Part shown: positions 16,159 to 31,861 of the stretch, in pieces | Position numbering within the stretch: position 1 is the stretch's first letter | How the letters are laid out: each line of letters starts with the position of its first letter | Assembly (NCBI GenBank): GCA_964514965.1 | Contig: CAZETV010000001.1 | Span: 330,001-362,000, forward strand | From: Candidatus Hadarchaeota archaeon | GTDB taxonomy: Archaea; Hadarchaeota; Hadarchaeia; Hadarchaeales; Hadarchaeaceae | Direction: 5' to 3' | DNA length: 32,000 bases | The notes under the pieces: model-generated | What the model was told of the DNA's origin: nothing | Databases searched by the model: none | The model's input: only the letters and a program-made list of their open reading frames with translations | Translations under genes and position numbers: made by a program

Positions 16159-16230
16159 CCCATCACCTAGGATAAATATTGGAGGTTTGGTTAGATAAGA
16201 CTGAAGATTGAACTCTGAAAAAAATAAGTA

Positions 16231-16285
16231 ACTATGTTTCTGAACAATTTTTCTGAACTATGTTTCTTAACCTCCTTTCTTAACC
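16231..16285. repeat. Cluster of short direct repeats in the boundary intergenic region
   Basis: ACTATGTTTCT occurs at 16231-16241 and 16257-16267. TTTCTGAAC occurs at 16237-16245 and 16250-16258. TTTCTTAACC occurs at 16263-16272 and 16276-16285. Confidence 0.5.
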
Positions 16286-16706: not shown

Positions 16707-17048
16707 TTGGAATTCAAAAAAGGAGATAATTCAATAGCTAGCAGAAAAGAAATATTAGATACTGTGGAGGTTGCTCTCAGAGAACTGACGAATGAATTCA
16801 TCCGAAATCCAATGCGTTTCTTCTCCGAAAAAGACTTCCATTGGTATTTCTGTTATCTATTAAACACGAACGAGCTAGTCAAAACCCGGTTTGATGGTTA
16901 CAAGACAATGATTTGCACCAAGAACCTGCCGAAGCATATCAAAAATGATTGCGATACGTTGAAGTCGAGTGGCGCGAGGAACAGGTATATTGCCATTTAC
17001 TACCGAGATCAAACTGGGAGAGTGGAAAAGTTTCGTCGCGTAAGGTAA
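16707..17048 (+). CDS. Hypothetical protein (113 aa), first gene of the McrBC-like module
   Basis: TTG start lies 9 nt after GGGGGAG (16691-16697), and the next ORF follows after 23 nt. I recognise no family. ATG at codon 36 is an alternative start. Confidence 0.4.
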   Translation: MEFKKGDNSIASRKEILDTVEVALRELTNEFIRNPMRFFSEKDFHWYFCYLLNTNELVKTRFDGYKTMICTKNLPKHIKNDCDTLKSSGARNRYIAIYYRDQTGRVEKFRRVR

Positions 17049-17071: not shown

Positions 17072-18298
17072 ATGATGTGGTTGGCACAGCGTAAATTTGG
17101 AGGATTCAAATCAATCGTGTTCAGGTCCTGTGATGGGACAAAGAAGGGGGCTCATCGGATATGTTTAGCGCTCAAGAACTTGAAGGTAGATATTGAGCTA
17201 AAAATCACCGCTAAAATTGATAAAAACCTCGTCGGAAAAGTTTCTAATTCATGGAGTCAGGGAAAATACTACCGGGATGCCGCTTGGCTCATGTTTACGA
17301 ATCGAAAAGTTGGCGCGTATAAACATCCTCAACTAACGGTGAACCTGTTTGAGGACGAAGTCTGGATTGGTTTTAGATCCCATGGGGATGATGAGTACGC
17401 TTTCCGATATCCATTTAAAATAGGAGACTATGCTAGAAAACACCCTAAACGTTTTAGAAAGTTGGTAAGCAGCCTTTCCAAAGTGGAGTGGGGATTTGAC
17501 TCCGACGAAAGAACAAATAATTTTACTACTCCTCGGCGCTTTACATCAAGAGAGTTAGAGATAAGACTTCGACAAAAATTCGAATGGATCAACACTAGAT
17601 TCGATAAAAGAGACCCGCTTGCGAAAAATAGCCGAATTGCAGATGAGATAGTAGATATCTTCAGCAGGCTCTATCCCCTCTATGCGATCACCGTGGGCAA
17701 GAGTTTTCAAATTGAAAGGCTTCTACCCGAAAAACAACTAGAGACCGTTGAAATTGTTGACCTCAGCCGTTCCCGCAAAGAAGTTTTGGAAAAAGCTAAA
17801 AAAGTATTCAAAAAGGGCGGCAAAGGCATAGATTTATCAGGCATCTATGCACCCTCTAGGAAAATAAGAGTTCCAATTCGAGAATCCAGAAAAATTGTAA
17901 TTAGATACTATGCCGCACTTTTAGACAAACTCAACCTTAGGCCGGTAGAAATCGGTGGCGAAACTTTACTTGTTGCGCCTGGCATGAGGATACCTCCGGT
18001 TAGAAAAATAAAGAGGTTTAAAGCGTTTTTAAGAAAAATTATAAGGATCATGGGTGGAAATCCAGAAACAGTTAAAATCATGGTTAAGGAACCCACTTCT
18101 GACGCAAGAATCATAGACAAACAGATCGTGTTTAATGCTACCCTGATAAACCATTCGCCCATATTTTGGATGATAATAGCGGCACGAGAGCTAGCATCGC
18201 TTAGATACAAGGAGCATTACCAGCATGTCAAGGCAATGAGCATCCTACTTGAAAGAGCTATAAAACATTTAGACGAAATTGATACCCGCTTTAGCTAA
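17072..18298 (+). CDS. Hypothetical protein (408 aa) with a C-terminal DUF45/YgjP-like region lacking the HExxH histidines
   Basis: Long ORF with island-typical composition. Residues 325-382 align without gaps to the motif region of the DUF45 peptidase at 22224-22976 (..FN..LI.........E...L.K.H), but read ARELASLRYKEH where the peptidase reads CHEVLHLKEKRH. I recognise nothing in the N-terminal half. Confidence 0.6.
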   Translation: MMWLAQRKFGGFKSIVFRSCDGTKKGAHRICLALKNLKVDIELKITAKIDKNLVGKVSNSWSQGKYYRDAAWLMFTNRKVGAYKHPQLTVNLFEDEVWIGFRSHGDDEYAFRYPFKIGDYARKHPKRFRKLVSSLSKVEWGFDSDERTNNFTTPRRFTSRELEIRLRQKFEWINTRFDKRDPLAKNSRIADEIVDIFSRLYPLYAITVGKSFQIERLLPEKQLETVEIVDLSRSRKEVLEKAKKVFKKGGKGIDLSGIYAPSRKIRVPIRESRKIVIRYYAALLDKLNLRPVEIGGETLLVAPGMRIPPVRKIKRFKAFLRKIIRIMGGNPETVKIMVKEPTSDARIIDKQIVFNATLINHSPIFWMIIAARELASLRYKEHYQHVKAMSILLERAIKHLDEIDTRFS

Positions 18299-18399: not shown

Positions 18400-20562
18400 A
18401 TGTGGTGCAGGATGATGGAAAAGCAAACGCTCGTAAGGCGTAGGGGAGATTTTGAAGAAAAGTTTGATGATTCTAAACTAGGCGTATCGGAAGAAAAATG
18501 GAAGAAATTTTTGGAAAAGTACCCGAGAGATAAGCTCAGCGAATTGGAGATTGACGATTATGTGGAAGGTAAAAGAAAAGAGAGTTTCTGTTGGTGGCTT
18601 GAACATGGGACTAGAAAACTCGGAAGCATGTGGGGTGGGTCAGCGGAAAAGTTTGGGATATATTACAAAAAAGAGCAGGGTAGATACTGGTTTGACAAGT
18701 CAAGGTTTAGGGACGAGAAAGAAGCGTTTTCTAAAGTGAAGGAAGATATCCTAAAATTATTGGACTTCGCTGAGAGGGGAGAATTTGAGAAGGTAGATAG
18801 AGAAATAAATACGATTTGGCCAGTAATGAAGTCAAAAATTATTTCAATGTACTTTCCAGGTAAGATTGTTAATGTACACTCGAGACGAAACATCAAAAAA
18901 ATATCGAATAGATTAGGAGTCGAGTACACCGGACCGATTAAGACAAGCGCAGAGATATTAACTGAGTTGAAAAACAGCGGAGTATTCGATGATTGGAAAG
19001 AAAAATTAACTGCATTTCAATTTGATCAAAAACTAGGCAATTTCGTTTGGAAGAAAGTTCTTAACGAAAATGAACCTGTGGAAGAAAGAAAACCGCCTAA
19101 GGTATGGCTTGAAAAAACATTGGTTTCAGGTAGACCTGATAGAGAATCTGGCCCTTATGCTTTAGGAGAAGCATTATGGTCTCCTCAAACGGATAAACGA
19201 GGTGCCGATATTTATGGAAATATGCGAAAATTGAGCATAGGTGACCAGGTTCTACACCTAGTAGATAATGATCAGATCATTGGGATTTCTAAAGTAAAAT
19301 CCGACCTAATTACTGATTTTCATTGCTTGCCCAGAACCGAGTGGGACGATGGAACTGGAAAGCGGCCGGGATACCTTCGTGAACTAGAGGACTTCAAACG
19401 ATTTGATAACCCTATTCATACATACTCCCAAATTTTAAAAAATGACAAATACAAAGAACTGCTAAAAAATCTATTGAACGGAGGGCACGATCTCTTTTAT
19501 ACAAGCGACCTTAAATTGAGGGAAGGAGCCTATCTAACGGAAGTTCCAGGGGAATTAATGCGAATATTGAGTGAAGAATCTGAGAAACCCACAATTGCGA
19601 TCCAACCTCTGGACCTTCAGCCGACTCTCATTAAAACAAAACTCAAGCTTACTCCAGATGTTCTAGGTCAAGTCTGTGCGAGTTTGAATGCGAGCAGCCA
19701 CGTAATTATAACCGGTCCAGTTGGAACTGGCAAGACCTCATTAGCTGAGGACATATGTCGAGCTGCAACAGAGAACAAGTTCTGCTATGGGTATGTCCTT
19801 ACAACCGCGACATCCGACTGGACCACGTTTGACACGATTGGTGGTTACATGCCGATAGAGGAAGGCAAGTTGAAATTTGAAGAAGGAAAGTTTCTCGATG
19901 CCATTCGAAGGAATAAATGGTTGGTTATAGATGAAATTAACAGGGCCGACATTGACAAGGCCTTCGGACAGTTATTCACAGTTCTCTCTGGACAAAGAGT
20001 TGAATTGCCTTTTAAACATTTCAATGGAAAAGGCATTTCTATTGAAACAACAAACGAGGAAAAAAGCTACTTTGAAGAAATTGCAACTTACAAAGTCGGT
20101 AGAAACTGGAGGATAATTGCCACGATGAACGTTTACGATATGAATTTCTTATTTGAGATGTCATACGCATTCATGAGAAGATTCGCCTTTGTCTACCTAA
20201 ATGTCCCAGAACCCGAGGAGTTTAGAAATTTAATTTCCGAATGGTGCAAGGGAAAGGGGATTTCGGACAAGACCACGGAAAAACTGGAGAAGCTGACAGA
20301 GTTCAAGGAGAGAAAAATTGGTCCCGCGATAATCAAGGATATGATAAACTATATCAAGCATAGAGGGGAGGGAGAAACTCAACTTGCAGAAGCTACCATT
20401 GCATATATTTTGCCCCAACTTGAGGGCATAGAAAAAGAAAGAATTGAAAATGCTTGGAAATACATCGGTAATATTTTTGATGAAAAGGACACCCCGAATA
20501 AGGTAATAAGACCTATATTAAATGAGATGACTGGCCTTGAACTAAAGGAAATTACTGAATAA
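18400..20562 (+). CDS. McrB-family AAA+ (AAA_5) NTPase with long uncharacterised N-terminal extension
   Basis: Walker A GPVGTGKTS (nt 19714-19740), Walker B with the McrB signature WLVIDEINRADIDKAFGQLFTVLSG, IIATMNVYDMN (compare E. coli McrB MNTADRS), and FMRRFAFV. About 415 aa precede the ATPase core. The start may be ATG 18412 or 18415. Confidence 0.85.
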   Translation: MWCRMMEKQTLVRRRGDFEEKFDDSKLGVSEEKWKKFLEKYPRDKLSELEIDDYVEGKRKESFCWWLEHGTRKLGSMWGGSAEKFGIYYKKEQGRYWFDKSRFRDEKEAFSKVKEDILKLLDFAERGEFEKVDREINTIWPVMKSKIISMYFPGKIVNVHSRRNIKKISNRLGVEYTGPIKTSAEILTELKNSGVFDDWKEKLTAFQFDQKLGNFVWKKVLNENEPVEERKPPKVWLEKTLVSGRPDRESGPYALGEALWSPQTDKRGADIYGNMRKLSIGDQVLHLVDNDQIIGISKVKSDLITDFHCLPRTEWDDGTGKRPGYLRELEDFKRFDNPIHTYSQILKNDKYKELLKNLLNGGHDLFYTSDLKLREGAYLTEVPGELMRILSEESEKPTIAIQPLDLQPTLIKTKLKLTPDVLGQVCASLNASSHVIITGPVGTGKTSLAEDICRAATENKFCYGYVLTTATSDWTTFDTIGGYMPIEEGKLKFEEGKFLDAIRRNKWLVIDEINRADIDKAFGQLFTVLSGQRVELPFKHFNGKGISIETTNEEKSYFEEIATYKVGRNWRIIATMNVYDMNFLFEMSYAFMRRFAFVYLNVPEPEEFRNLISEWCKGKGISDKTTEKLEKLTEFKERKIGPAIIKDMINYIKHRGEGETQLAEATIAYILPQLEGIEKERIENAWKYIGNIFDEKDTPNKVIRPILNEMTGLELKEITE

Positions 20563-20575
20563 AAAAGGGATAACG

Positions 20576-21835
20576 ATGGTTAGCGATTGCTGGTCAGATG
20601 AAGATTATCAACATGTTTTGGGTCAGGTAAAACACTATCTTTGGTTATACGTTCATGAAGGTGCAAGTATTGAAGAACTTGAAAATGCTGTTCAAAACCT
20701 GACGAGGCTCGATGGAAAAGATTTGGACTATCTGTCTGTCGTGCACTTTCTTTTGAGCGACGAAGTCAAAATACTCATTGAGGCCATTTCAAGAATTCTC
20801 CGGAGGCTTTCACACTCGACGCAGACGGAAGTCGTTGCGAACAAGGGTTTTGTAAAAGGGAGGATAGATTGGAATCTAACGATAAAGGAGAGGTACGCTC
20901 AAGGATACAACCCAACTATTTTTGTGTGCAGGCCTCCTTCAAGGGTATACGATCTTCCTGAGAATCAGTTACTAAAATTTCTCCTTGTACATATGAAAAG
21001 GATGATAGAACAGACTGCGTCGCTTCAAAAAATAGAGGAAAAAGACATCAGATTAGAAGAGCTTAAAACAGAAGAAAGGGAAAAATGGACGGAAAGAGTA
21101 TCATGGCTTAAATTTCACATCAATAATGCACTAAAACATGTTTACCTGAGAGAGGTCAAGTTACCGGATCAAGTAAATGAACGGATGATAAGAAGGGCTA
21201 GATTGTCAAGAAACAAAGATTATGAAAATATTGTGAACAGTTATTCTTTACACCGGAAAATAGTTCAGAAATCAGATGCAAAAGCATTGAGAGAGCTCAT
21301 AGAAAGGAGGGTCCTAGAGCCCCTGGAAAAAGATACTTTGTATGAGTTGTATGTTCTATTTGAAGTCATGGACTCGCTGGGCAAACCTGAGGAGCTTAAT
21401 CTAGTAAGACCTGGAGCGAAATCGATAGGATCTTTTAAAATCAATGGGGCGACCATCCGGGTTCACTTTCAACGAGTTAGAGGATTATTCAAAGTGAGTA
21501 AGTACAAACAAATCTTCGATGATTATGAGTTGGATGTCAGTTCAAGACGTCCCGATATCATCCTTCAATTTGAGAAGGAACCTAAATTCATGATAATTGA
21601 AGTTAAACGGACGACAAATAGGGACTACATTGTGGATAGTGTTTACAAAGTTTTAGGGTATCTGGCTGATTTCGAAAAGTTTTTTACTCTAAAACAGAAG
21701 CCCAAAGGCGTGTTGGTCGTTTGGAATATTGAGCGAAAGAGAAAGACAGAGCAAGATGTATCTATTTTGGCTCATAATAAGATCGCAGGATTTATCAAAG
21801 AAACTGTCGATATGCGTGGAAGCACTTTTAGATGA
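20576..21835 (+). CDS. McrC-like PD-(D/E)xK nuclease subunit
   Basis: Starts 13 nt after the McrB-like gene. McrC-like elements are LPENQLLKFLL and LYELYVLFEVM. The C-terminal nuclease motif is RRPDIILQF...FMIIEVKRT (D327, E342, K344). Confidence 0.7.
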   Translation: MVSDCWSDEDYQHVLGQVKHYLWLYVHEGASIEELENAVQNLTRLDGKDLDYLSVVHFLLSDEVKILIEAISRILRRLSHSTQTEVVANKGFVKGRIDWNLTIKERYAQGYNPTIFVCRPPSRVYDLPENQLLKFLLVHMKRMIEQTASLQKIEEKDIRLEELKTEEREKWTERVSWLKFHINNALKHVYLREVKLPDQVNERMIRRARLSRNKDYENIVNSYSLHRKIVQKSDAKALRELIERRVLEPLEKDTLYELYVLFEVMDSLGKPEELNLVRPGAKSIGSFKINGATIRVHFQRVRGLFKVSKYKQIFDDYELDVSSRRPDIILQFEKEPKFMIIEVKRTTNRDYIVDSVYKVLGYLADFEKFFTLKQKPKGVLVVWNIERKRKTEQDVSILAHNKIAGFIKETVDMRGSTFR

Positions 21836-21947: not shown

Positions 21948-22142
21948 ATGCCTAGGTGCTCGGTCTGCGGGCGGGAGTTTCCGGAGAGCCAGCTGCGCCG
22001 CTGCTACGATTGTGGCAAGGCATACTGCCCTGAGTGCGCCGAGAAGAACCCTACGATAAAGGAACTTGACATCTGCCCGGACTACAAGGAGATCTTCGAG
22101 GCCGAGGAGGACTACTGGGGTTGGGAAGAAGAAGAGTGGTAG
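21948..22142 (+). CDS. Small zinc-ribbon protein with acidic Trp-rich C-terminal tail
   Basis: 64 aa. ATG lies 8 nt after GGTGA. It has three Cys pairs (CSVC, CYDC, CPEC) and the tail EAEEDYWGWEEEEW. It is strongly GC-rich (41/60 at 21961-22020) against low-GC neighbours. Confidence 0.6.
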   Translation: MPRCSVCGREFPESQLRRCYDCGKAYCPECAEKNPTIKELDICPDYKEIFEAEEDYWGWEEEEW

Positions 22143-22223: not shown

Positions 22224-22976
22224 CTAGCCTATAAAATCGGCCAGAAACGTTGAACGGGGATACTCTTGAACAAAGAACCAGTATTCGAACAAACTGCTCT
22301 CCAATTGTTTGTAATTCTCAAATTCGCGCCCCATCTCCTCCCAAAAAGCTTTATCGTGACGCTTTTCCTTCAGGTGCAAAACTTCGTGACAAACCACGTA
22401 CCTAACGAGTTCCCTCGGCAGACAAATCAGCCAGAAGTTAAAGCTCAAATTTCCCTTGGACGAGCAGCTGGCCCATTTGGTTTTTTGTCTCTTTATGAAT
22501 ATTCTGTTGAACTCCACGCCAAATTTTTTGCTGTACTCCTCGGCCGCTGGCACAAGCTCACGAAGGAGTTTTTTCTTCAAGATGTTAACGAGCCGCCTGA
22601 GGTGATCCTGATCCCTTAAGTTGCATTCAATCCGCTTTTCATCAAAATCGATCTTTAGCGATCCATTTTCATGAACCTCAAAAAAATCCCCAAAAATGAA
22701 TAAACCTCTGCCGTTTTTCTTTTGATTTTTAATCTTCTCTATTGCTTTTTGGATTTCCTCATGTTTCTTGGATATCCAGTTCATCTTTCTCTCAAACAAG
22801 GGAGTTTCGTCTTTCCAGCTCTTCGGAAGGATTGCCATCAGTTCTCCAGTTTTAAATTCCAACCTAGGGTATCTTACATCTCTTCGCTCGACCTTGTATG
22901 GTAAGTCCGTCCCGTTCACTTGAATGGACTTACTAGAACCCTTTGAGACCCTTGATGATTTTTTCATATACCTCAT
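22224..22976 (-). CDS. DUF45/YgjP-type (M48-like) zinc metallopeptidase
   Basis: KWASCSSKGNLSFNFWLICLPRELVRYVVCHEVLHLKEKRHDKAFWEEM matches the family signature (WGSC ... fN..L...P....dYVvvHEl.HL.e.nHs..FW). The ORF overlaps the hsdR 3' end by 44 nt, or 35 nt if it starts at ATG 22967. Confidence 0.85.
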   Translation of the reverse strand: MRYMKKSSRVSKGSSKSIQVNGTDLPYKVERRDVRYPRLEFKTGELMAILPKSWKDETPLFERKMNWISKKHEEIQKAIEKIKNQKKNGRGLFIFGDFFEVHENGSLKIDFDEKRIECNLRDQDHLRRLVNILKKKLLRELVPAAEEYSKKFGVEFNRIFIKRQKTKWASCSSKGNLSFNFWLICLPRELVRYVVCHEVLHLKEKRHDKAFWEEMGREFENYKQLESSLFEYWFFVQEYPRSTFLADFIG

Positions 22977-25950
22977 TCCTCTCCTTTAGCGGCAACTTCT
23001 TCCTGAGGAATTTCCTGATCTCTCTGCCGACCTCCTTCAAAATTGTGGGTTTTTTGTTCCATCCCTTAAACAACTTTTCTGACTTTTCCAAACGCCCCCA
23101 TAGGGATTTTACTTCTCCAATCAGCTTTTCGGACTTCCCCATTTTTTCCTCCAATGCCACTAACAAGAAATATTCCGGCTCTGAGAGCTTCAACTCCTTC
23201 TGTCTTTTTTCCAGGTCCTGTGTCTCATGGACTATCTCAGACAACCGCTCGTATGCCTCTTTAACATCTATCTTCTTCTCCTTCCATTTCCTCACTATTC
23301 GCTCCACTTTCCTCGCTATCGGCTCATAGAGCAATTTCTGGGACCTATCGACCAAAACGTACTTGTTAAGCGCGAAGACCATGTCGTAGACTCTGTCGGT
23401 CATGCTCGAGTGAACTTTCCCAAGTTTGTCCAAATATTCATCATCCAGTTTCAGAACTGGAAACTCTTCTTTCATCTTTACATCCAATGTTTTATGAATG
23501 GTCTCAACGGTGCGGTTGAAATATTTCTTGAAGTATTCTTTAACTTTCTCCAGCTCTTCTCGATCCGGTCTAACGATCCACTTATCGCGGGAGTTATAGA
23601 CGGCCGTCAACCACTTGAATCTCTCGATGTCTCTTGATTCCAGATAGCGTGGACCAAGGAACTCGTAAATTCTCCGTAGCCTATCGTATTCCAAAAGGAA
23701 TTCCTTCTCAGCCTTGTCGTCGTGAAACAACATTTTAATTGCCGACTTCAGGGTTTCTCTATCGGTTCTCGTTCTATCCAGCCCTTTAAACAATTCCTCT
23801 GTTTCTTCTAACCGTTCCTTAAATTCCCTCACCTTTTCCTTCAAATCCACTGCGACGTACCTGATGTCTTGCTTCTGATAAATTGCCAACGCCTTTTCGA
23901 ATTCCTTGAGAATACCAATGTAGTCTATTATAAGCCCGGACTCTTTCACCCCCATGAAAGGCCTGTTGGTTCTAGCTATGGCTTGTAGCAGCCTGTGCTC
24001 TTTGAGGGGCTTATCGAGATACATCACTTCCAATATGGGTGCGTCAAAACCCGTAAGCAACATGTCTGTGACGATGAGAATTTTTGGATATTCCTCTTCT
24101 TTGAATTTCCTGATTATCTCTCTTCGAATCTCATCGATTTGCTTGTCCTGGTACCTTCCCCTTAGCTCTCGGTAGTAACGCATGATGAGTTCTGGATCGG
24201 TGTGCGGGTCGAATGTCATCACGACCTCCGTGTACTCGGGAGGTAGCAATCGGTCGAGCTTTTCCTTGTAGGTGATGCACGCTTCCCTGCACGCTGCCAC
24301 CACCATGCCCTTGAATTTCCCGTTGAGGTTCTCCTTAAAGTGGTTCGCGATATCTTCGGCTATGGTCTCTATCCTCCTCGGATTTTTGAGGAAGACCACT
24401 ACGTCGTTCAGCCTCCTGCTGATCCTCCGTTCAACTCTTTTCTGAAAATCTTCGGGTATTTCCTCCAGTTCTTGGGCGAGGAAATTTTCGAGCCGCTTTT
24501 TATTTAAACCTACTTTCTTCTCCATCCTCGTCTGGACGACTATGGGAAGAGTGAATCCATCCCTTATGGAATCCTCGATGAAGTATTTATGGAGGTAGAG
24601 TTCCTTCTGGCTGGGATAGCTGAAGGTGAGATAGGTATCCCTCTTCTTTTTCGTGAGAGGGGTTCCGGTGAAAGCAAAAAAGAACGCATTTATCAAAACA
24701 TCCCTCATTTGCTCGGCAAGTTTTCCGTACTGGGTCCTGTGTCCTTCGTCTATTATTGCGACCACGTTTTTCCTATTGGAAATTACTTCTTCCGATTCTT
24801 TTTCCAGTCCTAACGTCGAGAGGTCTTCTCTGAACTTATGTACAAGCGTGATGAAAATCCCCCTCTTCCCCCGGCACTCGTCATGGGTCAAAACTTCCTT
24901 CAGGTTTTTCACCGAGGAGATAACTTCGGGTTTGGCTATTCCTAGATCCAGATAAGAAAATTCGTCCCTCAGCTGCTCCTCCAGCTCATCCCGATCTACT
25001 ATGAGAAATATAGTTGGGTTCTCGAGTTTTGGGTGTCTGTAGAGCTTGTAAGTCGCGAAAATCATGGCGAGGGTTTTCCCAGACCCCTGCCAGTGCCAGA
25101 CCAGACCAGAATTCTTTTCTTCTTTTCCCTCCAAATTGCCTATCACCCGGTTGTAGATACGGTTTGCAGCATCGTACTGCATAAATCTGGGTAGGACCTT
25201 GGTAGACTTTCCGCGTTCCTCTCTCGCGAAAGTAAAGTTCACCAGTAGATCTGTTAGAGTGGATTTAGAGAGCATCTCAAGGGTCGCGTCCAGCTCATCC
25301 TCGAAGCCTTCCTCCCTCCAAAGATAAGTCTCCACATCTTTCAGGCCCAAGACATTCGGAAAATATCTGGCGGTTGCCTCGGCTGCGATGCTGAACTGCA
25401 CATACTTAAACAGTTCTGGAACGATATTTTCGTAATAATTTTTGATCTGTTTGTATGCTGTTTCCCAGCTGGCGCTAGGTTCGGTGGGGTTTTTGCACTC
25501 TATGGTCACGAGGGGTATCCCGTTGACGTAGAGAACTATATCTGGCCTTATCCTCCCGCGGGAACTCTCGAACCACACTTGGTTGCTGACCACGAACTCG
25601 TTGTTATCAGGATTTTTGCGATCGAGCAAGTCGATGTATTTCAGCTCTCTCGTGCGCTCCAACTTTATAGCTATGCCCTGTTTCAAAGACCTCAGGATAT
25701 GCTTGGACCCCTCAAAACTAGCCGGCTTGCTCTTGAGCTCGGCTAGAATCCGGTTCACGTCGCTTTCCGACAGCCCCAGATCCTCGTTTATCATTCTTAT
25801 GGCTCGAATAAAATCGTTAATGAGCAGGGGTTCAGCGTAATCTTCTCGCTCAAGCTCTTCCCCAGGGATGTATTTCCAACCCTTCCCCTTCAGCTTCTCG
25901 ATAATGTAATCCTCAACCGTGGATTTTTCTGTAAAAACTGGCATCCTCAT
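22933..25950 (-). CDS. hsdR: Type I restriction enzyme, R subunit
   Basis: N-terminal PD-(D/E)xK (IRPDIVLYVNGIPLVTIECK), helicase motif I WQGSGKT, motif II IIDEGHRTQYG, motif VI-like QAIARTNR, and a long helical C-terminal domain. 1005 aa. Confidence 0.95.
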   Translation of the reverse strand: MRMPVFTEKSTVEDYIIEKLKGKGWKYIPGEELEREDYAEPLLINDFIRAIRMINEDLGLSESDVNRILAELKSKPASFEGSKHILRSLKQGIAIKLERTRELKYIDLLDRKNPDNNEFVVSNQVWFESSRGRIRPDIVLYVNGIPLVTIECKNPTEPSASWETAYKQIKNYYENIVPELFKYVQFSIAAEATARYFPNVLGLKDVETYLWREEGFEDELDATLEMLSKSTLTDLLVNFTFAREERGKSTKVLPRFMQYDAANRIYNRVIGNLEGKEEKNSGLVWHWQGSGKTLAMIFATYKLYRHPKLENPTIFLIVDRDELEEQLRDEFSYLDLGIAKPEVISSVKNLKEVLTHDECRGKRGIFITLVHKFREDLSTLGLEKESEEVISNRKNVVAIIDEGHRTQYGKLAEQMRDVLINAFFFAFTGTPLTKKKRDTYLTFSYPSQKELYLHKYFIEDSIRDGFTLPIVVQTRMEKKVGLNKKRLENFLAQELEEIPEDFQKRVERRISRRLNDVVVFLKNPRRIETIAEDIANHFKENLNGKFKGMVVAACREACITYKEKLDRLLPPEYTEVVMTFDPHTDPELIMRYYRELRGRYQDKQIDEIRREIIRKFKEEEYPKILIVTDMLLTGFDAPILEVMYLDKPLKEHRLLQAIARTNRPFMGVKESGLIIDYIGILKEFEKALAIYQKQDIRYVAVDLKEKVREFKERLEETEELFKGLDRTRTDRETLKSAIKMLFHDDKAEKEFLLEYDRLRRIYEFLGPRYLESRDIERFKWLTAVYNSRDKWIVRPDREELEKVKEYFKKYFNRTVETIHKTLDVKMKEEFPVLKLDDEYLDKLGKVHSSMTDRVYDMVFALNKYVLVDRSQKLLYEPIARKVERIVRKWKEKKIDVKEAYERLSEIVHETQDLEKRQKELKLSEPEYFLLVALEEKMGKSEKLIGEVKSLWGRLEKSEKLFKGWNKKPTILKEVGREIRKFLRKKLPLKERNEVYEKIIKGLKGF

Positions 25951-25962
25951 CCTCCAGTTAGT

Positions 25963-26817
25963 TCACCCAAAACTCGGTTTTTCTGAAACATTTTTAGAAA
26001 ACAACTTGGACATTCTTTCCAAAACTCCTTTTGTTATCTGAGTCAGACGATCAAATTTTTTTATTATTGGATGTTCAACCGTGTAGACCATTAGCGGATT
26101 GTGTTCATACTCCGGATATGGATATCTTGAGGAAATCGCATGTGGACATGATATCAGGGATAAAAAGAGTAGATGGGTACTGCAAATTGCTTGAGGAATG
26201 CTAAAGGACACTATAAGCTCTTCTATTAATTCTGGAGTTAATGATTCAAACTTTTTCATTTCCCCCTTGATATTCTCGCGCAACTCTGGATGTTCCTCAG
26301 CAAGAGTATTTGCCACTTCTTGATAAAGAAATTTTAAGTTCTCTATTTCATTTTTATCAATCGTTATTTTTTGGCTTTCGATTTCTGCTTCTAAATTAAT
26401 TAATTCTGAGATCATCTTCTCTATTTCTTCATCGGAAATTTTGCGGTCAGAACGTTTAAGATAAGATTCGAATTTATCTAACATTTCGTCAAATTTTTCT
26501 GAACCTATATTCTCATATTCTTTGAATAGTGTGGTATGTTTCAATTTCGGAAGTTTTTTGATTCGTTCTTGAAACCTTTTAACTTTATTTTTTAGCCCTT
26601 CTACAACCTTGAGGTAAATTTCTAACGAATCATGACCAATTTCTTCTAAATCATCCTCACTAATTATGTTCTGATGTAACCCAAAAGATTTTGCGGCTTT
26701 CTCTACGGCTTGTTCTAAATAAAAAACCGCTTGTGGGTACAACTTTTTTTCAAATAAACACTTTGAGGCGTTTAGGTCACGTTCCGCAATGTCTAGAAGT
26801 ACACTTTTCGTGTTCAT
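25963..26817 (-). CDS. HEPN-like domain protein with a large coiled-coil insertion
   Basis: The N-terminus LDIAERDLNASKCLFEKKLYPQAVFYLEQAVEKAAKSFGL matches the first two HEPN helices (A..DL..A..l....y..a.f...QavEKalKa). A HEPN-like ISSRYPYPEYEH segment lies near residue 230. The two are separated by about 150 aa of charged heptad-like sequence. The start overlaps the hsdS stop by 4 nt. Confidence 0.5.
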   Translation of the reverse strand: MNTKSVLLDIAERDLNASKCLFEKKLYPQAVFYLEQAVEKAAKSFGLHQNIISEDDLEEIGHDSLEIYLKVVEGLKNKVKRFQERIKKLPKLKHTTLFKEYENIGSEKFDEMLDKFESYLKRSDRKISDEEIEKMISELINLEAEIESQKITIDKNEIENLKFLYQEVANTLAEEHPELRENIKGEMKKFESLTPELIEELIVSFSIPQAICSTHLLFLSLISCPHAISSRYPYPEYEHNPLMVYTVEHPIIKKFDRLTQITKGVLERMSKLFSKNVSEKPSFG

Positions 26818-28052
26818 AATTTTACTCTCCTCTTCCCGGTTAACAAATCGTTCATCAGTCCTTTCTTGAGCCTCTCGAGTTTTTCCTTCCTCTTTCTTTC
26901 GAGTTCGAGCTTTTTGTCAACGGTTGAGAGAATTTCGGCGATTTTTTGTTGCTCCAGAATTGGCGGGAGAGGGACTCGGTAGTTCTCGATTTCTTGTCTT
27001 CTTATCGCTTTGAAAGTTGAACCAGCTGATAAAGCTTCGAACTTCTTGCCATTGAACTTCAAGTAGTAGAACAAGAATAAATGATGAATCTTACTTTGCT
27101 TGACCCTAATAGTAGAAACACCTCTTCCAATACAACATTCAAATGGAGCAATATTAACGTCTCCAACTGGGGCCCTTACTGAAAGTAAAATGTCGTTAGA
27201 CTCAGCTGTCTTGACGGGATTAGAACAGTAAATCGTCGGTGAGGGGTAAATTTCCCCAAATTCCATTTTTCCTTGTAGGAACGGTAAACCTTCCCCTCTT
27301 TTATTATAAGTAGAGGAAGGAGGAGACTGCCCCATTATTAACTCGGCAATGTTTTTATCTCCAAGCCCAACAACATTCCACTCTCTAGGGATCTCGCAAC
27401 CCAGCTCCTTGTTGAACTTGAACTCCTTGTGCCCTATGCCCTTCGTAAGCAGCTCCTGCATCAGGCCCCGCTTCAGCCGCTCGGTTCGGGCTATGGCCTC
27501 GTCGACACGCTGGATCGCTTGGTAGACGGTGGAGAGGATCTCGGCGATGCGGCGCTGTTCGGGGAGGGGTGGGCGGGGAACTGAGTAGTTCTCAATCTCT
27601 TGTTTTCTTATCGCTTTGAAAGTCGAACCAGCTGATAAAGCTTCAAACTTCTTGCCATTAAGCTTCAGGTAATAGAATAAGAATAAATGATTGAATTTAT
27701 CCTGTTTGGCTCTGATCGCTGATAAACCTCTGCCAATACAACATCTAAATGGAGCAATATTAACCTCCCCAACAGGCGCCCTTACGGAAAGTAAAATGTC
27801 ATTGGGCTCAGCGATCTTAATGGGATTTGAACAATAAATTGTTGGGGAGGGATAAATTTCTCCAAATTCTAGTTTTCCCTGAAGAAAAGGTAGGCCTTCT
27901 CCTTTCTCGTTATAAGTTGAAGATGGAGGCGATTGCCCTATTATTAGCTCCACAACATTCTGGTCCCTTAATCTCACAACCCCCCACTCCTTTGGGATTT
28001 TGCTGATTGGAGTTTGTTTATGGTGGTTAGCTGTCTGCATCATTTTAACCAA
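26814..28052 (-). CDS. hsdS: Type I restriction enzyme, S (specificity) subunit with two near-identical TRDs
   Basis: Two TRD units (aa 19-176 and 221-378) are each followed by the conserved P.LPEQ..IAEILS helix. C-terminal coiled-coil LERLKKGLMNDLLTG is present. 412 aa. Confidence 0.9.
   Translation of the reverse strand: MVKMMQTANHHKQTPISKIPKEWGVVRLRDQNVVELIIGQSPPSSTYNEKGEGLPFLQGKLEFGEIYPSPTIYCSNPIKIAEPNDILLSVRAPVGEVNIAPFRCCIGRGLSAIRAKQDKFNHLFLFYYLKLNGKKFEALSAGSTFKAIRKQEIENYSVPRPPLPEQRRIAEILSTVYQAIQRVDEAIARTERLKRGLMQELLTKGIGHKEFKFNKELGCEIPREWNVVGLGDKNIAELIMGQSPPSSTYNKRGEGLPFLQGKMEFGEIYPSPTIYCSNPVKTAESNDILLSVRAPVGDVNIAPFECCIGRGVSTIRVKQSKIHHLFLFYYLKFNGKKFEALSAGSTFKAIRRQEIENYRVPLPPILEQQKIAEILSTVDKKLELERKRKEKLERLKKGLMNDLLTGKRRVKL
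26919..27392 (-). repeat. hsdS internal direct repeat, copy B (C-terminal TRD)
   Basis: Encodes aa 221-378. Hand alignment to aa 19-176 gives 128/158 identical residues. The DNA is also visibly similar over most of the length, with an offset of 606 nt. Confidence 0.85.
27525..27998 (-). repeat. hsdS internal direct repeat, copy A (N-terminal TRD)
   Basis: Encodes aa 19-176 and is the partner of 26919-27392. Confidence 0.85.
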
Positions 28053-28707
28053 ACCTCAGTTCCATTCGGCAGGAGGGGCAGGTGAAACTTCTGAATCTTG
28101 AGTATAAATTGAAAGTTATGCCACACTTTGGGCATTTCGTTTTAATTGAGTCAACACTAGCGGCTTCCTTTAGCGCCATGAGTATGCCACCTATGACTAA
28201 TCCTGTAAACCCACCAACCAACGCTCCACCAATTCTGTCTTTTGATGATAACAATCCACCCAAAACAGCACCGCCTGCTGTGAGCCCCATGCGAAGGTTG
28301 TTATTCTCAATAGCCTGTTTCATTTTTTGTAGAATTTTCTGGATATTTTGCCAATCTTCAATTTTTGTAGGCTCATACAAAATGTAATCCGTCAAATACG
28401 GAACAGGAAAATGGACTCTGTTATTGATATCTTCCACCACGAAAAGGGGTTTATTTGATCTTCTTGTCAGGCCCACTTCAAAAGCAACCCAATTTTGTGT
28501 GAAGTCCGAAGATTTCAGATTCTCCGTTAAAAATAGAAAAACCGCATCAGATGTTGCAATATTTTTTTCTATTTTCTTAAAGGGCGGCTCACTTTCCGGC
28601 GTAAATTCCATAAAAAGCGGCGAGATACCCGCAGATTTAAAATTAAGATCCGTTATTCTGATTAAGTCTTCGTCCTTTTTGCTGTGTGAGATAAACACTT
28701 GAACCAT
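28045..28707 (-). CDS. TIR-like domain protein with glycine-zipper hydrophobic segment and C-terminal zinc ribbon
   Basis: aa 1-110, VFISHSKKDEDL...SDAVFLFLTENLKSSDFTQNWVAFEVGL...KPLFVV, follows the TIR_2/TIR-like pattern (vFISys..D ... vlvllS..s..S.Wv..EiG). aa 140-179 form a Gly-zipper, GLTAGGAVLGGLL....IGGALVGGFTGLVIGGILMAL. aa 191-213 read CPKCG...CPSC. GGAG lies 9 nt upstream. The stop overlaps the hsdS start by 8 nt. Confidence 0.55.
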   Translation of the reverse strand: MVQVFISHSKKDEDLIRITDLNFKSAGISPLFMEFTPESEPPFKKIEKNIATSDAVFLFLTENLKSSDFTQNWVAFEVGLTRRSNKPLFVVEDINNRVHFPVPYLTDYILYEPTKIEDWQNIQKILQKMKQAIENNNLRMGLTAGGAVLGGLLSSKDRIGGALVGGFTGLVIGGILMALKEAASVDSIKTKCPKCGITFNLYSRFRSFTCPSCRMELRFG

Positions 28708-28956
28708 CTAATTATCTCCAATATTTATTAGGTTCGCCGCTCGACAGTAGGTTCTCGCATTATGGTCATGGGTGGCATCTAATGGCGACAACCGATCAAC
28801 GTGTAAACCAGGCCCGCGGTGGCAAGAGTGGTGGTAGTAGCAGTATTTAAAGGAGAAATGGTGTAAGTAATTATTGGCGGGTAAGTCCAAGTTGGTAACG
28901 TGTACCGGATGGTGCACTTCATGTCCGGCTTGGGTCCGCCGCTTGTTCACTGCCAA
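28708..28956 (-). CDS. Doubtful His/Cys-rich small ORF (82 aa) filling the DUF3800-TIR spacer
   Basis: TTG start only, inside the last codons of the DUF3800 gene; the stop abuts the TIR-like ATG. It has 12 His in 82 aa. Composition is GC-richer than the neighbours. No family is recognised, so this may be non-coding. Confidence 0.2.
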   Translation of the reverse strand: MAVNKRRTQAGHEVHHPVHVTNLDLPANNYLHHFSFKYCYYHHSCHRGPGLHVDRLSPLDATHDHNARTYCRAANLINIGDN

Positions 28957-29615
28957 AGAATCATTTCTCCCTTATTGACAATTTTATCCTCAATAATTTT
29001 GAAATACCTGTCATCACCGGAGTTGAACTTTCTGTTGATGCTCCAGACTACAAAATCGACCACCTGTAGCTCATTTTTAGAATAAGACGGAGCGTGATTA
29101 ATCTCGATGCTCCGGCTTTCAAGAAAAGTGGCCCTTTTTCTTTTTATGTAACTGTCAAAATCTGCGCGGAACAAAGTGTTGGTATGTTTCTTGTCCACTG
29201 TTATCACGAGCTTCCCGACCTTGACGTTCAACCGATCCATGAGCTTCCCACAGAGGTAGTTGTAAAGTTTATCCTTCACCTCATAGAGGTAATCAAATAT
29301 CTTGGACTTTTCGACGACTATCGCGTAAATATCGCAGTTGGCCACCCGGACTTGATTTAACACGTACTCCCGTATCATTCTGTTCGAGTTGTTGGCCTTG
29401 ATCTCTGGGAGCTGCCTGAGTTTCTTATTGAGCTTTCTCTCCCTCAGCCGCTTCATTATTCTAGAAAGATTTTTCGGATGGTCAACAAGGACCGCAGCAA
29501 CCACGAAATATTTTGAGCCGTATTTTCCCAAGTCGCCGCTTTCATCTATGTAAACACGTTTGGTCCAGTTCATCCGCATAACCCCGGAAAATAAAACCAG
29601 AGGTGGCCCCCACAA
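28947..29615 (-). CDS. DUF3800 family protein
   Basis: RVYIDESGDLGKYGSKYFVVAAVLV matches the DUF3800 N-terminal signature (iyiDESG....... yfvl..v.v). The likely true start is ATG 29579 or 29573; the track start at 29615 is a TTG 2 nt from the hsdM stop. Confidence 0.65.
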   Translation of the reverse strand: MWGPPLVLFSGVMRMNWTKRVYIDESGDLGKYGSKYFVVAAVLVDHPKNLSRIMKRLRERKLNKKLRQLPEIKANNSNRMIREYVLNQVRVANCDIYAIVVEKSKIFDYLYEVKDKLYNYLCGKLMDRLNVKVGKLVITVDKKHTNTLFRADFDSYIKRKRATFLESRSIEINHAPSYSKNELQVVDFVVWSINRKFNSGDDRYFKIIEDKIVNKGEMILWQ

Positions 29616-29616
29616 C

Positions 29617-31383
29617 TCATTTTTTCCCCTCGAGTTCTTTCAGATATCCATGTATTTTTTTCTCCACCTCGGCTATCTCGCCCTCCAAACTTCGCAGATC
29701 GTCCCACTCATTCGTAACATCTATTTCCTCTGCCTTCTCCTGCGGAAAAGCGTAGAGCGTGACGTTGAGGTTGTAATCGTTCCCCTTGATCTCATCCAAG
29801 GAAACGACCTTGACAAAGCCATCCGCGTCTTTAAAATTACGGTAAGCTCTCGTGACCTTCCTTATGTGGCCATCGCCAAGCCGGTTCAGCTTCCGGACCT
29901 CGGGGTGCTGCTCGTACTCTGAACTCGCATTTATGAAGAGAATTTTATTTTTCCTCTTAGTCGACTTGTGTTTGTTGAAAATCAAAATCGCTCCGGGAGC
30001 CCCGGTGTTATAAAAGAGTTTCTCGGGCAGGAGGATAACGCACTCGATCAGGTCATCTTTGAGAACCCCTTCTCTGATGCTCCTCTCCTTCCCCCCCCTG
30101 AACAAACAGCCATTGTCTATGACCACCCCAACCCTACCATTCCCTCCATCCGCGGAGCTGAGCATGTGCTGAATCCAAGCCCAATCAGCGGACTGATTTG
30201 GAGTAAATCCATAAGCATATCGCTGTTTCCAGAACTCTCCTTTCTTCAATACGTCTTCACCAAAGCCCTTTTGATTCCAAGGAGGATTTGCGATCACCAC
30301 ATTGAATTTCTTCAAAAAGTTGCCCTCCCTGAATTTTGGGTACAGTAAAGTATCCCCTAAGGCTAGGTTAACGTCCCTGATACCATGGATGTAAAGGTTC
30401 ATCTTACAAAGGCCGTATATTTCACGGTTGGCCTCTTGACCATAGATAAAAAGCTGCTTGGCCTTCTCCTTTCCGTATTTTTCTTTGACGTGGTTGTAAG
30501 AGAGTATCAGCATGCCGCCCGAGCCAAAAGCAGGATCGTAAACGGATTCTCTAGGCGTGGGGTCCAAAATCTCGACAAGTAGTTTTATTACCTCTCGGGG
30601 AGTGTAGACTTCCCCCTCCTTCGCCTTCTGCGGGGCGAAATATCGGAGAACCCACTCATATGCGTCGCCGAGTATGTCTGGGGAGACTCGGTGTAATTTT
30701 CTGGAGCTGAAAAGTTCAACAAGCTGCCTCAATATCTCAAAATTCTCGGTGCTCCTAGTGAACTGGATAAAGTCAGCTCTATCGATAACGTCTCTGAGTT
30801 CGGGGTTTCTCTCCGCCAAGACTTTTAAGCACTCCGCAAGCCTCGCGGGAAGCCTGTTGACATCCTTTCGTACGTTATCCCACAGAAATTCACTTGGTAA
30901 ATCGAAATCGTGGTAAACGCTACTCTTGGCCTCCTCTCTAGCCTCCTCTTCGCTCAAACCATCCTTGAGGGCTTCTCTATAGGCGATTTCAAATTCGACC
31001 TCCCATTTATCGCTGATCCGTTTCAGAAAAAGGAGGATGAGGATGAACTTGTAGTCTACTCTTGTTCTTATCAGGTCGGCCGCCTTTTTCAATAATCCCT
31101 CAAGGTCCTGCCTGGTTAATGCGCCGGCCCTCGCGATGCCCTCTATCAGAAACTCCTTCATGCTCCTCAGCGTGTAAACACTTTTTCTCGCATCCGAGGG
31201 GTCCGACCGTGCTTTGAGCCTTCCAGCTTTTCTGAGTTCCGAGAGGATTACGTTCACGTTCCTTTCGTTCTCCTTCAGCTTCTGCCTGAGCGCAGCGACG
31301 GCATCAGAGCGTGTAAAGGGTCGGTCTTGAAATACGTTCCATAAACCCAAATATCGCTCCTCAAGCCATTTGCTAAGTGTCAT
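29617..31383 (-). CDS. hsdM: Type I restriction enzyme, M subunit (N6-adenine DNA methyltransferase) with N-terminal winged-helix-like extension
   Basis: HsdM_N pattern LLKKAADLIRTRVDYKFILILLFLKRISD, AdoMet motif I DPAFGSGGMLI, and catalytic motif IV NPPWNQ. The first 85 aa or so resemble a wHTH (NVILSELRKAGRLKARSDPSDARKSVYTL). Confidence 0.95.
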   Translation of the reverse strand: MTLSKWLEERYLGLWNVFQDRPFTRSDAVAALRQKLKENERNVNVILSELRKAGRLKARSDPSDARKSVYTLRSMKEFLIEGIARAGALTRQDLEGLLKKAADLIRTRVDYKFILILLFLKRISDKWEVEFEIAYREALKDGLSEEEAREEAKSSVYHDFDLPSEFLWDNVRKDVNRLPARLAECLKVLAERNPELRDVIDRADFIQFTRSTENFEILRQLVELFSSRKLHRVSPDILGDAYEWVLRYFAPQKAKEGEVYTPREVIKLLVEILDPTPRESVYDPAFGSGGMLILSYNHVKEKYGKEKAKQLFIYGQEANREIYGLCKMNLYIHGIRDVNLALGDTLLYPKFREGNFLKKFNVVIANPPWNQKGFGEDVLKKGEFWKQRYAYGFTPNQSADWAWIQHMLSSADGGNGRVGVVIDNGCLFRGGKERSIREGVLKDDLIECVILLPEKLFYNTGAPGAILIFNKHKSTKRKNKILFINASSEYEQHPEVRKLNRLGDGHIRKVTRAYRNFKDADGFVKVVSLDEIKGNDYNLNVTLYAFPQEKAEEIDVTNEWDDLRSLEGEIAEVEKKIHGYLKELEGKK

Positions 31384-31405
31384 ACATCTCCAATTTTCCG
31401 GAAAC

Positions 31406-31418
31406 TTTAAATTATATA
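31406..31418 (-). promoter_or_regulatory. Candidate TATA box for the hsdM operon (minus strand TATATAATTTAAA)
   Basis: Located 23 nt upstream of the hsdM ATG (31383) on the minus strand, in the 76-nt gap after the radC-like gene. Motif only. Confidence 0.3.
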
Positions 31419-31459
31419 CGCTTTTTTGTTTTAGCTTACTAAATAAGCTTTATGATAAC

Positions 31460-31861
31460 CTAATGGATAATCCCGCGAGCCCTCAAGCTTGTGTAACCCT
31501 CGCCCCCAATTATCACATGATCCTGAATCCAAACACCTATCGTCTTGCCGATCCTGACTAGCTTTTTGGTGACTTCGATATCCGACTCGCTGGGCTCTGG
31601 ACTCCTACTTGGATGATTGTGGACGAGAATTATGGAAGCAGCAGAATTTTTGAGCGCACTCTCGAACACCTCCCGAGGGCGGAGCAGGGTTATGTCGGCG
31701 GCTCCACCTGATATTGTCTCACAATTTATCAGCCTGTTTTGGAGATCGAGGGAAATAAGCTTGATCACCTCGTGCTTGAGGACCCGGATCTCCTCTCTGA
31801 CCAACTCGAAGACATCTTCCGGCCTTGCAACATGAACCCGCTCGTTTTCAGCAGGCCTCAT
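31460..31861 (-). CDS. RadC-like JAB/MPN domain protein (short form)
   Basis: ILVHNHPSRSPEPSESDIEVTKKLVRIGKTIGVWIQDHVIIG matches the RadC signature (HNHPSG.pePS..D...T..L......lgi...DH.Iig). At 133 aa it lacks the N-terminal HhH part of full-length RadC. Confidence 0.85.
   Translation of the reverse strand: MRPAENERVHVARPEDVFELVREEIRVLKHEVIKLISLDLQNRLINCETISGGAADITLLRPREVFESALKNSAASIILVHNHPSRSPEPSESDIEVTKKLVRIGKTIGVWIQDHVIIGGEGYTSLRARGIIH

Follow-up and report, generated by a model that had tools for sequence, protein, structure and literature searches.

Two cargo slots in a Type I restriction-modification operon of a Hadarchaeota archaeon, a candidate scaffold for second-line defence genes

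Introduction

When defence-type genes are found between the genes of a restriction-modification (R-M) operon, do they form one system with it, or are they separate modules that the operon carries? We addressed this question for a 32,000-nucleotide (nt) stretch from a Candidatus Hadarchaeota archaeon (contig CAZETV010000001.1, positions 330,001 to 362,000; referred to as the window), in which a Type I R-M operon holds a DUF3800 gene, a TIR gene and a HEPN gene. A precedent for such an arrangement is PrrC, which is embedded in the EcoprrI Type I operon (PMC12707154). The initial annotation of the window, made from the sequence alone, had proposed a layered system in which all three inserts are effectors under the control of the Type I complex. 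Comparison with related loci argued against this proposal, as the cargo was found to differ on the same backbone (loci L124, L011/L013 and L001; see below). The reading that we favour, with a probability of roughly 0.5, is that a working archaeal Type I operon in a low-GC defence island serves as a scaffold with two slots for second-line cargo.

A Type I operon with two cargo slots

Listing of the open reading frames (ORFs) of the window, combined with Pfam searches, bore out the nine minus-strand genes and the domains that had been ascribed to them. They are given below from high to low coordinates, together with a structured small RNA (sRNA) on the opposite strand (lengths in amino acids, aa).

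31460..31861, minus strand: RadC-like JAB/JAMM protein, 133 aa, first gene of the backbone (Pfam RadC, 1.9e-39)
29617..31383, minus strand: HsdM, Type I N6-adenine methyltransferase, 588 aa (Pfam HsdM_N and N6_Mtase, 2.9e-109, 365 bits; PADLOC MTase_I)
28947..29573, minus strand: DUF3800 protein, 208 aa, predicted RNase H-like nuclease (Pfam DUF3800, PF12686, 56 bits against a cutoff of 21, 7.9e-15)
28870..28946, plus strand: DUF3800-associated structured sRNA, a 77-nt three-helix rod convergent with DUF3800 (covariance model R1, 78.2 bits, E 1e-17)
28045..28707, minus strand: TIR protein, 220 aa, with a TIR domain, a Gly-rich membrane-like segment and a C-terminal zinc ribbon (Pfam TIR_2, 29.7 bits against a cutoff of 28)
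26814..28052, minus strand: HsdS specificity subunit, 412 aa (Pfam Methylase_S twice, 3.9e-58; PADLOC Specificity_I, many matches)
25963..26817, minus strand: split classical HEPN protein, 284 aa, with a helical insert of ~170 aa (Pfam HEPN, PF05168, 39.4 bits against a cutoff of 22)
22933..25950, minus strand: HsdR restriction/translocase subunit, 1005 aa (Pfam HSDR_N, SWI2_SNF2, ResIII, T1R_D3-like and T1RH-like_C; PADLOC REase_I, 3e-125)
22224..22976, minus strand: YgjP-like (DUF45) protein with a zinc metallopeptidase fold, last gene of the backbone (Pfam YgjP-like, 6e-37)

The gene order hsdM-[DUF3800, TIR]-hsdS-[HEPN]-hsdR, in which the accessory genes are flanked on both sides and on the same strand by one system, supports the earlier view that defence-type genes are embedded in a Type I operon, with HEPN in the slot of prrC. 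We refer to the stretch from hsdM to hsdS as slot A, to that from hsdS to hsdR as slot B, and to the radC-like gene, hsdM, hsdS, hsdR and the ygjP-like gene as the backbone.

The junctions had been described as operon-tight, and for the most part they are: the TIR stop overlaps the hsdS start, the hsdS stop overlaps the HEPN start (ATGA), hsdR overlaps ygjP, and a gap of 12 nt separates HEPN from hsdR. The distance between hsdM and DUF3800 is 43 nt, however, instead of the 2 nt that had been assumed, as the DUF3800 gene most likely starts at ATG 29573 and not at TTG 29615 (an identical database protein, P0084, has 208 aa).

The closest relative found was contig L124, which carries RadC (62% identical and upstream of hsdM), HsdM (79%), DUF3800 (83%, at the same position), hsdS, HsdR (78%) and YgjP (61%) in this order. 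DNA homology between the window and L124 spans 31776-28875 and 25937-22408, and in between only short conserved parts of hsdS match. The breakpoints are located ~72 nt past the DUF3800 stop codon and between the hsdS stop and the hsdR start, which are exactly the two slots. The slots of the window and of the loci compared with it are filled as follows.

Window: slot A, DUF3800 with sRNA, and TIR-membrane-zinc-ribbon; slot B, split HEPN
L124: slot A, DUF3800 with sRNA, RusA-like protein, and transglutaminase-like DUF553 protein; slot B, SEC-C/HEAT protein, and HTH-nucleotidyltransferase (MNT)
L013/L011 (HsdM 76% and HsdR 61% identical to those of the window): slot A, Fic, TIR-membrane-zinc-ribbon, and OLD-family ATPase-TOPRIM; slot B, 315-aa distant HEPN relative
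L008: slot A, 195-aa gene of unknown family; slot B, HEPN
L001: slot A, TIR-membrane-zinc-ribbon only; slot B, none

Because the same backbone thus carries differing cargo, the three inserts of the window represent one mosaic combination and no conserved trio, and no second locus with all three together was found among the ~130 fetched. That the same slots are filled in independent contigs places the arrangement beyond chance. A search for direct or inverted repeats flanking the inserts, as footprints of insertion, yielded none. The 264-aa SEC-C/HEAT protein in slot B of L124 was considered as a diverged HEPN and ruled out (hhalign probability 0.2%).

With M, S and R subunits that carry the expected domains and motifs, and that PADLOC labels as Type I components, the R-M operon itself is apparently intact. 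The HsdM translation contains both the S-adenosylmethionine motif DPAFGSGGM and NPPW. HsdR combines an N-terminal nuclease with a superfamily 2 translocase, as Type I systems require, and its translation shows GSGKT, DEGH and the D...ECK nuclease motif. HsdS matches Methylase_S in two stretches, in line with the two target-recognition domains of Type I systems. An internal direct repeat of hsdS (26913-27212 and 27519-27818, 300 nt, 79% DNA identity) makes these two domains nearly alike, so that the recognition site is probably symmetric. At the ends of the backbone, the RadC-like translation contains the JAMM motif HNHPSRSPEPSESD and the YgjP-like translation an HExxH motif in the form of HEVLH; a further RadC homologue was found in L128, and a YgjP-like gene directly follows hsdR in L005-L008, L011, L117, L119 and L124 as well.

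The first ~90 aa of HsdM (window 31114-31383, minus strand) form an N-terminal extension ahead of HsdM_N that has no Pfam match. This extension is conserved in the lineage, with the L124 and L013 proteins aligning from residues 1-3.

The HEPN gene and its link to hsdR

The HEPN assignment was confirmed along three lines that all agree, namely Pfam, a profile match to TM0613 and Foldseek. The family is small, with 19 full-length relatives (31-86% identity) among 5.8 billion clusters. Its profile matched TM0613 (1o3u; 5e-6) in two stretches, residues 7-45 and 226-269, the second of which includes the RYP motif. Moreover, the AF2 model (pLDDT 76) is all-helical, and its N-terminal 67 aa superpose on the HEPN proteins ST0689 and TT1696 with a root-mean-square deviation of about 2 (Foldseek). 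Together, these data identify the protein as a classical HEPN that is split by a helical insert of ~170 aa. Invariant residues of the family are Q36, E39, K40, K43, E54, H62, R231, Y232, P233 and Y245.

In all nine independent contexts (the window, L005-7, L008, L011, L117/118, L119, L120 and L128, with L117/118 stemming from an MSBL1 archaeon) the HEPN gene directly precedes hsdR, which is in turn followed by ygjP on every contig that extends far enough. The adjoining HsdR proteins fall into two subfamilies of ~1005 and ~963 aa, which are mutually 37-40% identical. HEPN and HsdR identities do not run in parallel: between the window and L005 they amount to 67% for HEPN and 38% for HsdR, between the window and L011 to 32% and 62%, and between L008 and L119 to 40% and 88%. 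This incongruence indicates that the HEPN gene has been exchanged between the two HsdR subfamilies while its position was kept, which in turn points to selection on the HEPN-hsdR association or to insertion by a highly specific mechanism.

Distant proteins whose similarity to HEPN is confined to the N-terminal helices showed no hsd linkage, and no HEPN relatives were found in viral contigs. No ATPase domain was detected in the HEPN protein with Pfam, PADLOC or NCBIfam, and no cognate MNT antitoxin gene lies beside it in the window. By analogy, HEPN is a credible PrrC-like guard on HsdR and the best candidate for such a role among the inserts.

The TIR gene and its small partner

For the second insert, the earlier label of TIR-like could be upgraded to a TIR fold. 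PADLOC returned ThsB-like matches (2.6e-5), and the top Foldseek matches of the AF2 model (pLDDT 83) were SpbK, SARM1, RPS4, SPARTA, Cat1 and TIR-STING, with E from 6e-5 to 1e-3. Among 46 sequences, the residues F5, S7, H8, S9 and D12 (FxSHSxxD), W73 and E77 (WxxxE) and the four Cys of the ribbon are invariant, and four Gly of the hydrophobic segment nearly so. The protein is predicted to cleave NAD+ through the invariant Glu77.

The genomic contexts of the TIR family were drawn from 80 metagenomic loci. Of the four distinct loci that have this gene or a close relative of it (at least 55% identity), three, the window included, have it between hsdM and hsdS. Homologues that are 61-65% identical occupy this slot in L001 and L013 (loci L001/L002 and L011/L013), and the one of L001 (65% identical) resides in a Type I system with an HsdM that shares only 32% identity with the window protein. 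Among relatives below 40% identity, by contrast, hsd genes occur within 4 kb in only 2 of 44 loci (flank of at least 1.5 kb).

These distant relatives frequently have a partner of their own, as in 28 of 60 distant TIR-family loci the TIR gene is directly followed or overlapped by a conserved ~100-aa gene of unknown family. Examples are L014 10644-10955, L015 10629-10937 and L016 8172-8477, next to ~25 more loci, with TIR relatives that are 29-39% identical. The partner has no Pfam match, and a search of the window and of all close or hsd-embedded relatives showed it to be absent there.

The DUF3800 gene and its convergent sRNA

The DUF3800 protein has D10, E11, Q170 and D173 as invariant residues (35 homologues), which correspond to the DE and QxxD motifs of the RNase H-like DUF3800 domain (PMC7736814). 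PADLOC gave a weak match to PDC-M04A (24 bits, 4.8e-6), with no other PDC-M04 component among the neighbours. In the literature, DUF3800 has been tied to retrons and to CRISPR accessory genes.

The spacer that follows the gene had been annotated as 240 nt or as a His-rich ORF. It measures 239 nt and holds the 77-nt sRNA. In the alignment of the spacer with L124, this stretch is more conserved than coding sequence, and an 18-nt core of it recurs just past the stop codons of DUF3800 genes that encode proteins with only 39-83% identity. When 17 examples were aligned, the predicted fold comprised 19 base pairs, of which 10 show compensatory changes; 96% of the cells are paired, compared to 85% in shuffles (0 of 500 reached the observed value) and 31-50% with slid partners. 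Twenty-nine cells are G.U on the strand opposite DUF3800 and would be A.C if read on the other strand. A TATA-like sequence, TATTTAAA, is located at 28844-28851, ~29 nt upstream of the sRNA, and a T-rich tract comes after it. The G.U strand bias, the TATA-like box and the T-rich tract point to an sRNA gene convergent with DUF3800, which we consider the most likely identity of the element. The 82-aa His-rich ORF (28708-28956) was rejected as a gene and is an artefact: its sole conserved part is the sRNA, and this conservation is at the nucleotide level, with compensatory changes.

Searches with covariance model R1 showed the sRNA to adjoin the gene, always antisense to it, in 22 of 22 archaeal DUF3800 loci tested as well as in the window. 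No Rfam match was obtained for it, whether the gathering score or a limit of E up to 10 was applied, although the Rfam library does detect DUF3800-III (RF02962) in the Chloroflexota loci L110 and L111. Weinberg et al. (2017) described eleven DUF3800-associated RNA motifs (DUF3800-I to -XI) of unknown function (PMC5737381). In L110 and L111, DUF3800-III lies immediately downstream of DUF3800 and antisense to it, as does the sRNA of the window, and the two have a core in common that is made up of an outer stem, a UAAGU loop and a CCNGG stem. The archaeal sRNA differs in being shorter (77 nt), with a single distal hairpin (GUGUACC-GGAU-GGUGCAC). Judged from these shared and divergent elements of predicted structure, the window sRNA is a further, compact archaeal variant of the DUF3800-associated motifs.

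Solo copies of the sRNA were also found. One lies in L124 (6270-6345) after hsdS, at the junction with slot B; another in L011 (8808-8884) after ygjP, beside a DUF3800 3' remnant of ~55 nt; and a third in L132 (1094-1176), an IMG/VR viral contig that has no DUF3800 gene. Such copies could flag the junctions of cassettes or serve as a decoy. When the 18-mer was matched against viral sequences, four of five contigs matched in the hairpin only, probably by chance, and L132 alone has the full element.

A convergent sRNA gene with its own TATA-like box between DUF3800 and TIR makes a single transcript from radC to ygjP unlikely. The one transcript from 31.4 to 22.2 kb that had been foreseen is therefore doubtful, and a second transcription start is expected upstream of TIR.

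DUF3800 is linked to hsd genes in only 2 of 28 genome loci, L094 (hsdM directly upstream) and L106 (hsdR-ygjP-DUF3800), with L124-127 as a further case. DUF3800 and its sRNA thus form a portable, self-contained module that is mostly found away from hsd. Of the enrichment next to hsd genes that had been anticipated for the inserts, the part that holds concerns HEPN (9 of 9 contexts) and the close TIR relatives (3 of 4 loci), whereas DUF3800 and most of the TIR family do not show it. As both of the latter occur away from hsd, neither needs to be under the control of the Type I complex.

Genomic setting of the operon

In the left half of the window lie housekeeping genes of archaeal type (replication factor A, aIF5A, a NOG1-type GTPase, IleRS and topoisomerase). 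GC content is ~0.53 in this core, compared to 0.36-0.48 from ~16 kb to 32 kb. A McrBC-like pair adjoins the operon, namely an AAA_5 protein (18400-20562, plus strand) and a DUF2357 protein (20576-21835, plus strand). The low GC content and the neighbouring McrBC-like pair suggest that the operon lies within an acquired defence island of the archaeon.

Some further features of this region are given here as side observations. Three overlapping copies of a 26-nt direct repeat, 13 nt apart, are located at 16230-16281, near the drop in GC from ~0.53 to ~0.42, and may mark the boundary of the island. Upstream of the McrB-like gene, the low-GC island contains ORFs of 113 aa (16707-17048, plus strand) and 408 aa (17072-18298, plus strand) that have no Pfam match. 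The McrB-like AAA_5 protein has a long N-terminal region, of which residues 31-246 are 30% identical to the N-terminus of a NOV_C protein beside the TIR homologue in L003, and the DUF2357 protein shows a weak VRR-NUC match. The gap that separates the McrC-like gene from the end of the hsd operon contains a 64-aa ORF (21948-22142, plus strand) with two CxxC pairs and weak FYVE and zinc-ribbon matches.

Relation to described systems

The initial annotation regarded the architecture as undescribed, which was too strong, since accessory genes embedded in such operons have been reported (PMC3710099; PMC11411939; bioRxiv 10.1101/2024.01.29.577857). The systematic 'guilt-by-embedding' survey of Payne et al. 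(2024) found 17,432 genes that lie inside Type I R-M, BREX and DISARM systems (bioRxiv 10.1101/2024.01.29.577857), and TgvAB sits inside a Type I operon on VPI-2 of V. cholerae (PMC11411939). The window shares with these cases the same-strand accessory genes flanked by one system and the variable cargo, and its DUF3800 protein matches the PADLOC candidate PDC-M04A. Those surveys used RefSeq genomes, whereas the two slots of the window were mapped to DNA breakpoints on a shared backbone. The locus is therefore a further case of a known embedded-cargo arrangement with uncharacterised cargo families, and refines the existing picture without overturning it.

The closest parallel for slot B is EcoprrI-PrrC, in which a gene of the HEPN superfamily likewise occupies the hsdS-X-hsdR slot of an intact Type I operon (Type IC for EcoprrI). 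Both families are nearly confined to this slot: PrrC is embedded 'almost exclusively' according to Payne et al. (bioRxiv 10.1101/2024.01.29.577857), and the window family in 9 of 9 contexts. PrrC differs, however, in that its HEPN domain has the canonical Rx4-6H motif and is fused to an ABC-ATPase, while the HEPN of the window has no ATPase, is split, is of the TM0613 type and has R231 and H62 as invariant residues. It also comes from an archaeal host, and its latency on the R-M complex is a proposal by analogy. Anantharaman et al. (2013) found at least 16 HEPN clades in conserved R-M neighbourhoods and proposed PrrC-like, multi-pronged defence; the R-M clustering of the classical HEPN clade (1o3u, 2hsb) was reported in the same study (PMC3710099). 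Those R-M-linked clades were reported as mainly bacterial, in contrast to the archaeal HEPN of the window. AF0298-like HEPNs have kept the Arg of the motif but not its His; another conserved His, on the N-terminal side of the motif, may provide an alternative active site (PMC3710099). The window HEPN resembles them, with the Arg kept, the motif His lost and a further His on the N-terminal side. In the literature examined, we found no description of a ~285-aa split HEPN strictly upstream of hsdR-ygjP in archaea.

The TIR protein of the window has in common with ThsB, SpbK, SPARTA and TIR-STING the TIR fold, the conserved Glu of NADase-type TIRs and a location in a defence island. It differs from these bacterial effectors in lacking a ThsA, Argonaute, STING or CARF partner and in being fused to a Gly-zipper-like membrane segment and a C-terminal zinc ribbon; in particular, no ThsA-type protein of Thoeris (SIR2, Macro or SLOG) was found among the nine genes scanned. 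No named PADLOC system matched the TIR-membrane-zinc-ribbon protein or the split HEPN.

Discussion

Directly observed are the genes present and their domains and conserved residues, the two slots and the exchange of their cargo, the statistics of genomic context and the covariation of the RNA; the activities, the latency mechanism and the transcription units of the locus are inferred. As a first line of defence, the backbone would methylate host DNA and cut unmethylated incoming DNA, and the cargo would most likely provide back-up responses of the abortive-infection type. Among this cargo, HEPN is the likeliest to be physically coupled to HsdR in the way of PrrC; it would stay latent on an intact restriction complex and be released upon inhibition of the latter. 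A similar coupling, to the M and S proteins, may hold for the hsd-embedded TIR subclade, unless it is merely co-expressed, while DUF3800 and its sRNA would act autonomously.

Several points weigh against this scaffold with coupled and uncoupled cargo. The contexts are few, and most come from short metagenomic contigs. One close TIR homologue, that of L003 (56% identical), is not part of an hsd operon but belongs to another defence island. Furthermore, HEPN has no conserved His at the Rx4-6H position, as the His 8 residues past the invariant R231 (H239) varies, so RNase activity would need an alternative R231/H62 site of the kind proposed for AF0298-like HEPNs (PMC3710099). Finally, the strict adjacency of HEPN and hsdR could reflect an insertion preference instead of protein-protein coupling.

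This last point leads to a possible though less probable explanation, in which all three inserts are autonomous defence or toxin modules that escape regulation by the Type I complex, and in which the hsd junctions tolerate insertion and then provide co-transfer and co-expression. It is consistent with the varying cargo on one backbone, with the low hsd linkage of distant TIR relatives (2 of 44 loci) and the ~100-aa partner that many of them possess (28 of 60), with the equally low linkage of DUF3800 (2 of 28 genome loci, L094 and L106), and with the protection that TgvAB affords in the absence of the Type I genes, albeit less strongly (PMC11411939). It accounts poorly, however, for HEPN being upstream of hsdR in 9 of 9 contexts despite its exchange between HsdR subfamilies, for the loss of the ~100-aa partner from the hsd-embedded TIR subclade where free-standing relatives keep it, and for the recurrence of this subclade between hsdM and hsdS in L001, where the Type I system is an unrelated one. 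On the most far-reaching reading, the Type I complex might license two suicide effectors, one being HEPN as an ATPase-less PrrC analogue with an R231/H62 site that is latent on HsdR, and the other a TIR subclade that swapped its ~100-aa partner for control by HsdM/HsdS, with the DUF3800 sRNA as a cognate regulator or antitoxin; such an elaborate arrangement is conceivable but improbable.

It is about as doubtful, and perhaps slightly more so, that the inserts are selfish stabilising elements (toxin-antitoxin-like or homing) or regulators of the operon, with DUF3800 and the sRNA as an addiction module of the RNA-antitoxin type and HEPN as a non-catalytic binder of RNA or nucleotides. The constant pairing of DUF3800 with the convergent sRNA, the solo sRNA copies at cassette junctions (L124 6270-6345 and L011 8808-8884) and the missing canonical His of HEPN would fit such elements, the more so as classical HEPNs are the toxins of MNT-HEPN pairs and some are non-catalytic (PMC3710099). 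Against this, links to defence loci recur in each of the TIR, HEPN and DUF3800 families, the operon lies in a defence island that also contains McrBC-like genes, and the HEPN gene has no adjacent cognate MNT antitoxin. The single integrated system proposed at the outset, in which the Type I complex holds DUF3800, TIR and HEPN inactive and frees all of them on phage attack, has become very unlikely. The tight coding junctions, the PrrC precedent (PMC12707154) and the location of DUF3800 after hsdM in the window, L124 and L094 would agree with it, but the trio is not together in any other of the ~130 loci, and the inserts occur singly (TIR only in L001, HEPN without TIR or DUF3800 in L008, DUF3800 only in L124). 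Moreover, DUF3800 has its own conserved sRNA and lives mostly away from hsd, and the gene of this sRNA splits the putative single transcript.

On the scaffold reading, the window offers a compact and mapped example of an archaeal restriction operon that collects and exchanges second-line defence modules, in a domain of life of which few systems have been tested. It brings to light a rare HEPN family whose link to hsdR is as tight as that of PrrC to Type I loci, without an ATPase or a canonical site, and a TIR-membrane-zinc-ribbon family whose free-standing members are accompanied by a small partner gene that the hsd-embedded ones have lost. With the covarying convergent sRNA, the association between DUF3800 and RNA that Weinberg et al. 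described now includes DPANN-type and other archaea; if this sRNA does regulate DUF3800, it would offer a first route to the function of the eleven-plus orphan DUF3800 RNA motifs.

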